Notes under the pieces: generated by a model
Told to the model about the DNA's origin: nothing
Seen by the model: only the letters and a program-made list of their open reading frames with translations
Databases searched by the model: none
Virus genome (UHGV): UHGV-0107341
Reading direction: 5' to 3' (one strand)
Source of the DNA: a virus
DNA length: 54,395 nucleotides
Part shown: piece by piece, positions 19,975-21,019 of the stretch
Position numbering within the stretch: the first letter of the stretch is position 1
How the letters are laid out: each line of letters starts with the position of its first letter
Position numbers and translations under genes: made by a program

Positions 19975-20802
19975 TTATTTCACCGGAACAAACGGAACAG
20001 CGGTATTACTGGTCATATACTGCGGTAATGTACCGTTCCATTTGTTGATCGCTTCCAACTCCATAACACCGGGGTTCTGGCGCAGAGCTTCACCACGTAA
20101 ACGAATGGCATCAGCTTCGGCCTGGGCTTTTGTGCGAATAGCATCAGCCTGTCCGGCAGCTTCCGCGCGCAGCATGTTGGCCTCTGCTTCACGTTGTTTG
20201 ACCTCTTGCTCGCGTTGCAGGGTTTTTTGGTTTGCCGTGACTTTGGCGTTAATACTGTCAATAACTGTTGGCGGGTATTCTGGCTTACCTACATAAGAGA
20301 GGCTCATCACCTGAATGCCGATTGGCGTCATTTCTTCCTGAATGTCTTTAAGGGCTGCATCAAGCAATTCAGATTTGCCACCGTCGATAAATTTGTCGGT
20401 GGTCATTTTGCTGGCTAACCGGTTCAGAGCATCTGCAACCTTCTGGCGTAGATCGGTATCAGTAATATCATCTACACCTTTGCGATAGGTCTGAAATACC
20501 GTTGTGACTTTTGCTGGATCAACCTTGTAGGCTACGCCGATGTGGTAACCAATGGTTGTTCCGTCGCTCATCTGGAAGCTGAACGGCTCATCGTATGTCT
20601 TCATTTGCTTAAAGGTCGGGAAGATATAAACTTCAGTATTCAAGCCTGTCCAGTAGCGACCAACGCCAACTACTTCACCGATACCTTTATCATCCCCCAG
20701 CTTATTTACTTTGATCCCTACGTTACCTGGCTCTACCCGATCGCATCCGGTCAGACATAAAGAACCCAAAATAATCGCTGCACTAATCAACGTTTTTTTC
20801 AT
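19975..20802 (-). CDS. SPFH/Band-7 domain lipoprotein
   Basis: Lipobox LCLTGC after a signal peptide; C-terminal Ala/Glu-rich coiled region typical of SPFH (HflK/YqiK-like) proteins. Confidence 0.55.
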   Translation of the reverse strand: MKKTLISAAIILGSLCLTGCDRVEPGNVGIKVNKLGDDKGIGEVVGVGRYWTGLNTEVYIFPTFKQMKTYDEPFSFQMSDGTTIGYHIGVAYKVDPAKVTTVFQTYRKGVDDITDTDLRQKVADALNRLASKMTTDKFIDGGKSELLDAALKDIQEEMTPIGIQVMSLSYVGKPEYPPTVIDSINAKVTANQKTLQREQEVKQREAEANMLRAEAAGQADAIRTKAQAEADAIRLRGEALRQNPGVMELEAINKWNGTLPQYMTSNTAVPFVPVK

Positions 20803-21019
20803 TAATTAATTTCCTGGTTTTTTCACGAAAAAAGACTACTGCGAAAGCCGGGTAAATGAGCGCGAGAAGGACTCCCAACAATACAAGTATTGTGCTGTTA
20901 GATGAGATCATATTTGGCAAAAGCCAAACATACAGAACCAGTGACACAATCAAACAGAGGACGGCATAAATATATAACCGCACCCATAGCGTTCGACATT
21001 TGTTCGAATTGTTCTGCAT
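20783..21019 (-). CDS. small two-helix inner-membrane protein (possible NfeD/YqiJ-like partner of the SPFH protein)
   Basis: 78 aa with two hydrophobic helices; overlaps the start of the SPFH gene. Confidence 0.4.
   Translation of the reverse strand: MQNNSNKCRTLWVRLYIYAVLCLIVSLVLYVWLLPNMISSNSTILVLLGVLLALIYPAFAVVFFREKTRKLINEKNVD

Follow-up and report, generated by a model that had tools for sequence, protein, structure and literature searches.

Why do so many phages encode a protein of the SPFH family? SPFH proteins such as HflK/C, the prohibitins, the stomatins and the flotillins are understood as cage-forming membrane organizers, and genome papers leave the reason for their presence in phages with the remark that it "remains unclear". 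In the literature we searched, phage SPFH genes figure as annotation curiosities only. For instance, SPFH appears for T4-like phages in a bare Pfam table (PMC1524935), and one paper speculates that a phage SPFH gene has a role in lysogeny control (PMC10269572). An HflK/C-like protein borne by a Pasteurella prophage has been described as a virulence factor and a TLR1/2 agonist carried on outer membrane vesicles (PMC9872710). The question is raised anew by a locus in the virus genome UHGV-0107341, of which a stretch of 54,395 nucleotides (nt), here called the window, was analyzed. On its minus strand lie two overlapping open reading frames (ORFs), at 19975..20802 (275 amino acids, aa) and 20783..21019 (78 aa), which a first-pass annotation had located correctly and had described as a lipoprotein with an SPFH-like region and a two-helix membrane protein. 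The region is part of a P1-like (Punavirus) phage-plasmid. Our main new result is that the SPFH protein and its two-helix partner are a conserved module, and the two components are taken in turn below.

The 275-aa protein has the SPFH fold. Pfam Band_7 (PF01145) matches it with E=9.7e-31 and 107.6 bits against a gathering cut-off of 23.6, over an envelope of residues 22-208 (20179..20739) that takes in profile positions 2-176 of 176, and the whole protein matches PHROG 200 'lipoprotein' with E=2.3e-113. The first-pass annotation had assigned SPFH to a C-terminal region; the envelope instead starts right after the lipidated Cys and makes up the bulk of the mature protein. An AlphaFold model of the monomer, built from 26 homologues, has a mean predicted local distance difference test score (pLDDT) of 76.7. 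Its N-terminal half is rich in beta structure (SPFH1) and is followed by an alpha/beta half (SPFH2), by a helix of 65 residues (178-242) and by a tail of low confidence. Searching the PDB with Foldseek places HflK and HflC at the top (E ~1e-14; 7vhq, E=4e-14 and 1e-13), followed by erlin1/2, prohibitin and stomatin and then by flotillin, QmcA (8z5g) and MVP, all with probability 1.00, and the SPFH fold is thus present in the predicted structure as the first reading had anticipated. HflK is also the best PDB match by sequence, and the C-terminal helix aligns with the HflK coiled coil. Past the SPFH domain, the C-terminal 67 residues (coding positions 19978..20178) hold the last part of this long coiled-coil helix and a conserved tail, presumed to serve as oligomerization wall and cap. 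The tail, ...INKWNGTLPQYM...PF..VK, is near-invariant in the alignment, yet its pLDDT is <50 in the monomer model; a conserved tail of this kind would be compatible with large rings or cages, and proves nothing. The gene is labeled 'serine protease' or 'putative serine protease' in RCS47 (FO818745.1), in the Stx2 phages LC567830 and LC567834 and in other records. No protease-like match was found in any scan made, and the label looks like a propagated annotation error.

The N terminus of the SPFH protein points to its location. Residues 1-20 (20743..20802) read as a signal peptide with lipobox: MKKTLISAAIILGSLCLTGC, followed by DRV, offers a basic n-region, a hydrophobic core, the lipobox L-T-G-C closing at Cys20, and then Asp21 at position +2. 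Asp at +2 is the classical inner-membrane retention signal of E. coli (the Lol-avoidance rule). Because a lipoprotein signal peptide predicts export, the SPFH protein is predicted to face the periplasm from a lipid anchor in the inner membrane, on the same side as HflK/C. Of 11 Enterobacterales loci on chromosomes or contigs, 10 retain the residues C-D-R-V, as does KpCHEMY26, an N4-like phage of Klebsiella, and one Sutterella homologue has no Cys and carries an N-terminal hydrophobic anchor that looks uncleaved.

The partner is a small protein of a different kind. It matches PHROG 1130 'membrane protein' (E=6.3e-16) and has two hydrophobic segments, which AlphaFold models (pLDDT 68.6) as helices 3-38 and 43-77 with a break between them and no strands, in agreement with the two-helix protein first described. 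Lys and Arg residues are found at both termini and the loop, PNMISSNST, is uncharged, so that by the positive-inside rule the protein is predicted to be an inner-membrane hairpin with an N-in/C-in topology. The loop (P35-N-M-I-S-S-N-S-T43, coding positions 20891..20917) would then be the periplasmic part. Aligning 15 partners from four bacterial orders reveals a family motif spanning the close of helix 1 and the loop, (L/V)(L/V)-P-x-(L/M)-(I/V)-S-x-x-(S/D)-(S/T), which is invariant among close homologues; the partners also have a Gly in common in helix 2 and usually a Pro ~8 residues further on. A Shine-Dalgarno-like sequence, GGAGTGAGAGG (21020..21030, minus strand), abuts the ATG of the partner. 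Pfam returns noise-level matches only, and a search of 1.84 billion proteins found 10 partner representatives, all of 62-84 aa. The ORF is absent from the annotation of RefSeq (PGAP) plasmids, of RCS47 and of the Stx2 phages.

The two genes are tightly joined. They overlap by 20 nt in different frames (20783..20802, ATGAAAAAAACGTTGATTAG), with the SPFH ATG (20802-20800) and the A7 run behind it (20799-20793) falling within the 3' end of the small ORF, and an AGGA lies ~10 nt ahead of the SPFH ATG. Related loci keep the overlap or have a gap of at most 54 nt. As read from the sequence, the overlap is consistent with translational coupling. A 347-aa protein (P0001; 8 member sequences, from a 94-kb contig) is an exact in-frame fusion of partner and SPFH protein through the loss of one A from the A7 run, for which either an error of sequencing or genuine slippage could account. 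Its topology is coherent, with the partner C terminus in the cytoplasm and the signal-peptide helix then crossing outward. Programmed -1 frameshifting on A_AAA_AAC was considered and rejected, as the -1 frame stops after one codon and the SPFH frame is +1.

How general is this pairing? Among 80 loci from IMG/VR, 75 have a partner homologue directly upstream of the SPFH gene, and the remaining five, which gave no BLAST match, have in this place a two-helix ORF of 62 aa, with 4 nt of overlap at the SPFH ATG. A second lineage has an SPFH protein ~93% identical to that of the window and a partner only ~42% identical, in the same place and with the same overlap. A contig search with two peptide patterns yielded 15 species-level genome loci, every one of which has the partner (adjacent in 13), at SPFH identities down to 44-50% in Chimaeribacter, Sutterella, Luteibacter and Dyella. 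A profile built from the 15 partners was run on 108 sequences, with P1, which is free of the cassette, as the negative control: in 103 of them it picked out a single ORF at each locus, which in every case stood just ahead of the SPFH gene, and it had no match in P1. A partner with the motif accompanies the SPFH gene in KpCHEMY26, in Aeromonas phage Gekk3-15 and in Burkholderia phage phiE125, and it stands one gene removed from it in the rV5-like phage 4MG. The same pair can be recognized in existing annotation of P88 (gp11/gp12), KpCHEMY26 (gp28/gp29, where the annotators' wording for the partner is '2 TMDs N in C in'), Ro157c2YLVW and phiE125 (gp44/gp43). The P88, KpCHEMY26 and phiE125 pairs are direct family members under PHROG 200 and PHROG 1130, with the same gene order and overlap; these entries are annotation only, give no function and do not describe the pair as a unit. 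In all, the pair spans phages and prophages of Enterobacterales, Aeromonas, Burkholderiales and Xanthomonadales. Partner identity is 21-43% while SPFH identity is 41-93%, with the loop motif retained. The SPFH protein thus tolerates very different hairpins provided that the loop motif is kept, which would place the contact between the two proteins at the loop.

Three loci show other arrangements. A prophage copy in an E. coli chromosome (L087 4218-4915) has an IS1 between the two genes and an altered partner C terminus. In a second locus (L086) the partner is displaced by ~770 nt, as in L087, and in a third (L042) it lies 2 kb from the SPFH gene.

Two known systems invite comparison. The first is HflK/HflC, which resembles the phage pair in the SPFH fold, in the long coiled-coil helix, in being the best structural and PDB-sequence match, in the predicted placement on the periplasmic face of the inner membrane and in having two components from adjacent genes. 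It differs in its anchor, an N-terminal transmembrane helix rather than a lipid, and in that the phage-borne pair has one SPFH gene, its second component being a 78-aa hairpin and not an SPFH paralogue. Orthology was rejected: the NCBIfam equivalog models TIGR01933 and TIGR01932 give 24.7 and 23.3 bits, where they require 134.4 and 159.4. The second is the NfeD-SPFH operon (YbbJ-QmcA, YqiJ-YqiK, PH1510-PH1511), to which the first-pass annotation had likened the locus. The likeness holds for gene organization, as these operons also have a small membrane-protein gene immediately upstream that overlaps or abuts the SPFH gene, and it fails for the proteins. The phage partner has no Pfam match to NfeD (PF01957) at E<=1, and its all-helix model, with relatives of 62-84 aa, leaves no room for the NfeD OB-fold domain, so that the identification of the partner as NfeD was rejected. 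In addition, QmcA and YqiK face the cytoplasm, whereas the phage SPFH protein is predicted to be exported and lipidated.

What might such a pair do? The SPFH identity, the hairpin partner, the gene overlap and the conserved pairing together lead us to think it somewhat probable that the two proteins are subunits of a phage SPFH-type membrane scaffold, resembling HflK/C split into two chains and made in lytic development. In this scaffold, the overlap would couple translation so that both proteins are made together and in matched amounts. The hairpin would cross the inner membrane twice, its two ends staying on the cytoplasmic side, and only the short conserved loop (P-x-L/M-I/V-S...) would reach the periplasm. 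The SPFH protein would be exported, lipidated at Cys20 and held in the inner membrane by Asp21, with its SPFH domain on the periplasmic face, where the partner loop could dock the SPFH subunit. Formation of a ring or cage would then be driven by the long helix and the conserved tail, as in HflK/C, erlin and prohibitin, the structures nearest to the model, which likewise face away from the cytoplasm. In HflK and HflC the transmembrane palisade is built into the chain itself; here it would come from the hairpins, as a second chain. Both proteins would be produced once the phage is derepressed or infects a cell, and not while a lysogen is quiescent; in the window, they would be transcribed along with the tRNAs and the ban helicase gene from the ban promoter, under the control of C1. 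As to purpose, we suggest with low confidence that the assembly fences off or stabilizes a patch of the inner membrane of the infected cell. It could serve as a shield against further phage DNA entry or membrane-damaging attack or, alternatively, corral a host membrane machine such as FtsH. By rank, we would place insulation or stabilization of the inner membrane first, capture or modulation of FtsH second and early superinfection exclusion third.

The timing of expression can be approached through the place of the pair in the genome. The two genes occupy a well-delimited cassette. Positions 19700-22200 of the window are 99.8% identical to Escherichia phage vB_EcoM-813R1 and 98.9% identical to RCS47, both of which are collinear with the window, and match P1 only in part. 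By blastn, homology with P1 covers 18000-19956 and 21045-21681 with none between, which delimits a cassette of 1088 bp (19957..21044, minus strand) consisting of a ribosome-binding site, the partner ORF, the SPFH ORF and an 18-nt trailer. Its edges fall 25 nt before the partner ATG, so that the partner's own ribosome-binding site is included in the cassette-specific DNA, and 18 nt past the SPFH stop codon. The P1 segment without a counterpart in the window (L001 3758-4473, 716 bp) is exactly tciC, tciB and tciA; the cassette therefore replaces the P1 tciC-tciB-tciA genes. The tciABC position has been described as one of eight hypervariable regions of P1-like phage-plasmids, around half of which are without tciABC (PMC9603915), a study that does not say what stands there instead. 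The whole tciABC slot is non-essential for P1 plaque formation, as judged by CRISPR interference (PMC10695390). In P1-like elements the cassette would be an exchangeable accessory that the phage can do without and that takes turns with tciABC, a cassette of TerB type. The two occupants use the exact same slot between upl and trnI in the ban operon and are both non-essential, variable and presumed to act on membranes; they differ in that tciABC has three genes, TerB-domain chemistry and no SPFH scaffold, and no sequence relation to the pair. By analogy, an exchange with a TerB-type cassette would fit a role in membrane protection.

Upstream of the cassette lies the ban promoter, Pban. A bivalent C1 operator covers it at 22759..22786 (minus strand), comprising a perfect 17-mer, ATTGCTCTAATAAATTT, at 22770-22786 and a 2-mismatch copy at 22759-22775, and the operator/promoter core is identical to P1 Pban/Oban. 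Pban and its operator are 1.75 kb upstream of the cassette and co-oriented with it, ahead of the tRNAs, the cassette, trnI, ban and dbn. Because an intact C1-controlled promoter lies upstream in this orientation, the cassette is by default expected to be repressed in a lysogen; the account of ban regulation given here follows the P1 GenBank annotation and general background. For tciABC, which fills this slot in P1, induction has been reported at 10 and 20 min into P1vir infection (bioRxiv 10.64898/2025.12.28.696737). Related loci can be read in the same way. In the P2-like phage P88, the gp11/gp12 pair sits within the early operon between cox and the replication gene, and the SPFH gene of the Stx2 phages has the leftward genes near cI on one side and xis/int on the other, all in one orientation, and is preceded by an unannotated partner that was found by the profile. 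A Yersinia contig has the SPFH gene after the genes for SSB, an exonuclease and a recombinase, and in Sutterella it adjoins a primase or methyltransferase gene. The distribution of the family is the most telling point. By tblastn, the SPFH family is present in 392 phage records, many of them from Schitoviridae (N4-like), Vequintavirinae (rV5-like), Felix O1-like phages, Bruynoghevirus (LUZ24-like), phiCbK-like phages and Crassvirales, with Lak megaphages and the haloarchaeal virus Halorubrum HRTV-19 also represented. The N4-like, rV5-like, Felix O1-like, LUZ24-like, phiCbK-like and crAss-like groups are generally regarded as strictly virulent, an assumption that we adopt, and in phages without lysogeny the gene cannot serve lysogenic conversion. 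The pair most likely acts during lytic growth. The first-pass annotation had proposed expression in lysogeny, which runs counter to the C1-controlled promoter, the lytic induction of tciABC, the early-region genes of P88 and the Stx2 phages and the occurrence in virulent groups. Its further suggestion of a membrane function, either exclusion or remodeling, is plausible as a hypothesis.

Several points weigh against the two-chain lytic scaffold. The literature we searched has no experiment on any family member and no functional study of a phage SPFH protein, and the oligomerization, the contact between loop and SPFH domain and the location in the membrane are inferred. The monomer model is uninformative about a cage. 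The Asp rule is one for E. coli, and residue +2 of the non-enteric homologues is Ser, Asn or Glu. The partner profile found no match in four distant phages (TL, Prophecy, CcrSwift and crAss cr128_1), so that the partner is perhaps not universal. Transcription into the cassette also deserves caution. A structured RNA at 21040-21175 (minus strand, 136 nt; free energy -53.1 kcal/mol, z=-4.06, 0 of 200 shuffles as good) ends in a closing stem followed by U6 (21045-21050), exactly at the upstream cassette junction, and could be a terminator or an RNA-processing site. A terminator-like hairpin, TGCCCATCTTCGGGTGGGCG followed by T7, lies at 22574-22596 (minus strand) between the ban promoter and the tRNAs. 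Because these two elements stand between Pban and the cassette, read-through from the one to the other is assumed, on the analogy of P1. A scan for internal sigma-70 promoters over 19500-23000 found none, but it also missed the annotated Pban.

Some of these elements have features of their own. Directly upstream of the SPFH gene of cr128_1 (L106 ~1800-2000) there is an unannotated small two-helix ORF (…NIGLVMMSTSNTVEN…), which recalls the partner loop and falls below the profile threshold. The structured RNA matches the small RNA (sRNA) family STnc100 below threshold (37.8 bits with E=3e-6, where the gathering score is 47). The hairpin at 22574-22596 falls in a region that P1 annotates as 'dicF-like'; a DicF sRNA was rejected here, as Rfam gives no DicF match even at E<=1. 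The C1 operator consensus has seven more 17-bp matches in the window with 1-3 mismatches (6571, 8663, 8712, 12336, 26046, 41001 and 42672; 0.34 expected by chance), and these are presumably other C1-controlled operators of the P1-like genome.

Other accounts of the pair have to be set beside the two-chain lytic scaffold. One extends it, and we consider it possible though doubtful: the pair would be a hitherto unrecognized, widespread, organelle-like 'split HflK/C' cage, made of a lipid-anchored SPFH protein and a two-helix palisade on the outer face of the cytoplasmic membrane, which virulent and temperate phages of many bacterial phyla would assemble during infection to take over a patch of membrane. 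The job of such a cage would be, for example, to trap FtsH or to seal the membrane against competing phages or host suicide effectors.

A narrower account keeps the two-subunit architecture and makes the pair a mimic of HflK/C that captures or modulates host FtsH and so alters the turnover of phage or host membrane proteins or of regulators of the lysis-lysogeny decision. HflK and HflC are indeed the closest solved structures and PDB sequences, the predicted periplasmic orientation is common to both, NCBIfam gives weak matches to hflC and hflK, and it is textbook knowledge that HflK/C, prohibitin and erlin all partner with proteolysis or degradation machinery. The annotators of Gekk3-15 and of Burkholderia phage CSP3 suggest likewise. 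However, the NCBIfam matches reach 23-25 bits where the equivalog cut-offs are 134-159, identity to HflK is ~18%, and there is a single SPFH gene and no K/C pair. Relatives also occur in the archaeal virus HRTV-19, and archaea are generally held to lack FtsH. On balance we regard FtsH capture as unlikely.

Alternatively, with architecture and lytic timing unchanged, the pair could be an early superinfection exclusion system in which an assembly on the periplasmic face blocks the genome entry of later phages, as the lipoprotein Ltp or T4 Imm/Sp do. Known exclusion proteins have this format, in which an inner-membrane protein of two helices and an anchored periplasmic protein are made before the late genes, and the pair would resemble T4 Imm/Sp and lipoprotein exclusion proteins in it. 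The slot is variable and non-essential, and the partner diverges fast, as would be expected under arms-race pressure or modular exchange. Against this, scans of Pfam, PHROG and PADLOC found no relation to known exclusion families, Imm/Sp included, and the SPFH domain is far larger than those proteins and is expected to oligomerize. In the PADLOC-DB v2 defence models, the SPFH protein has no match and the partner has a noise-level one only (E=0.022, to PDC-M18B). The SPFH protein is also unusually conserved among phages that differ widely in host and morphotype, which speaks for a general role in physiology more than for a specific block, and exclusion is to our minds an improbable function.

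A lysogenic role is harder still to accommodate. In this account the cassette is a conversion or exclusion 'moron' expressed in lysogeny, which protects the lysogen (through superinfection exclusion or colicin resistance) or changes its surface. Its place in a hypervariable accessory slot of P1-like elements would suit such cargo, and PHROG 1130 is categorized as 'moron, auxiliary metabolic gene and host takeover'. The other occupant of the slot, tciABC, resembles TerB, and resistance to phages and colicins has been linked to ter operons (PMC9603915). The Pasteurella prophage protein that affects virulence (PMC9872710) is an HflK/C-like SPFH protein, likened to ours by description only. The cassette is moreover common in E. 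coli lysogens: it is found in 195 PLSDB plasmids, 190 of them non-mobilizable and those listed ~90-110 kb in size, and of 5426 complete E. coli genomes, 460 have a match to it, which in 192 of them covers its full length. Yet the only promoter recognized upstream is the C1-repressed Pban, the same slot of P1 is induced in lytic growth, the genes of P88 and the Stx2 phages belong to an early region and not to a moron with a transcript of its own, the family abounds in phage groups that are generally taken to lack a lysogenic state, and there is no PADLOC defence match. We therefore hold a lysogenic conversion role to be rather remote. Lastly, that the small ORF is a chance frame beside an SPFH protein acting alone is almost certainly wrong: its omission from RefSeq PGAP and several GenBank records and its noise-level Pfam matches are outweighed by its own Shine-Dalgarno sequence, its PHROG 1130 match, its one profile match per locus and its recurrence in the same place with 21-43% identity and a conserved motif in four bacterial orders, and this conservation effectively refutes the idea.

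The surroundings of the cassette complete the picture of the locus. Its 3' edge lies 9 nt before a tRNA gene with a CAT anticodon (19872..19947, minus strand), the P1 trnI, supported by ARAGORN, Rfam and the P1 and RefSeq annotation. ARAGORN calls it tRNA-Met, whereas P1 and RefSeq annotate tRNA-Ile, that is, an ileX-like tRNA whose CAT anticodon is modified to read AUA. The ban gene for a DnaB-type helicase (18221-19591, minus strand) lies 3' of trnI. Upstream of the cassette and co-directional with it are tRNA-Thr (21948-22023) and tRNA-Asn (22026-22101), found by ARAGORN and Rfam (together 21948..22101, minus strand), and further upstream is the Dmt methyltransferase ORF (22777-24795, minus strand). 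From its first start codon Dmt is 672 aa long in the window versus 754 aa (2265 nt) in P1, and a different start or an N-terminal difference is possible. Composition gives no clear signal of foreign origin, with a GC content of 0.42-0.50 in the cassette against 0.46-0.55 in the flanks.

Between the cassette and tRNA-Thr (21045-21950), some four repeat units, each 200-260 nt long, make up a degenerate array. Its repeat families include one at 21165/21426/21659/21855 and one at 21217/21700/21915, and the last unit abuts tRNA-Thr. P1 annotates upl and plp in this region on the opposite strand and RefSeq annotates nothing; in the RCS47 annotation they occupy L002 4012-4623, corresponding to ~21200-21820 of the window. 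The possibility that our pair is P1 upl/plp was rejected, as the P1 and RCS47 annotations put these genes on the opposite strand and they are unrelated. The repeats may represent RNA elements, or else spacers in what was once a tRNA/sRNA array and has decayed, co-transcribed from Pban, and upl and plp may be spurious ORFs.

What, then, does the locus add to our understanding of phage SPFH proteins? The genes themselves were already present in databases and their function is inferred. What is new is that the phage SPFH protein is part of a two-gene unit, with a conserved partner that is not NfeD, a predicted lipid anchor, a predicted orientation toward the periplasm and a probable tie to the lytic program. 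For annotation, the consequences are immediate, as RefSeq misses the partner ORF and the SPFH gene is repeatedly mislabeled "serine protease". P1-like phage-plasmids are also vehicles for resistance genes, and the cassette is common in those of clinical E. coli and Salmonella. P1-like plasmids, the P2-like phage P88 and N4-like coliphages offer tractable systems for its study, and the conserved pairing, kept in virulent and temperate phages alike, provides a testable lead on why phages carry SPFH proteins.

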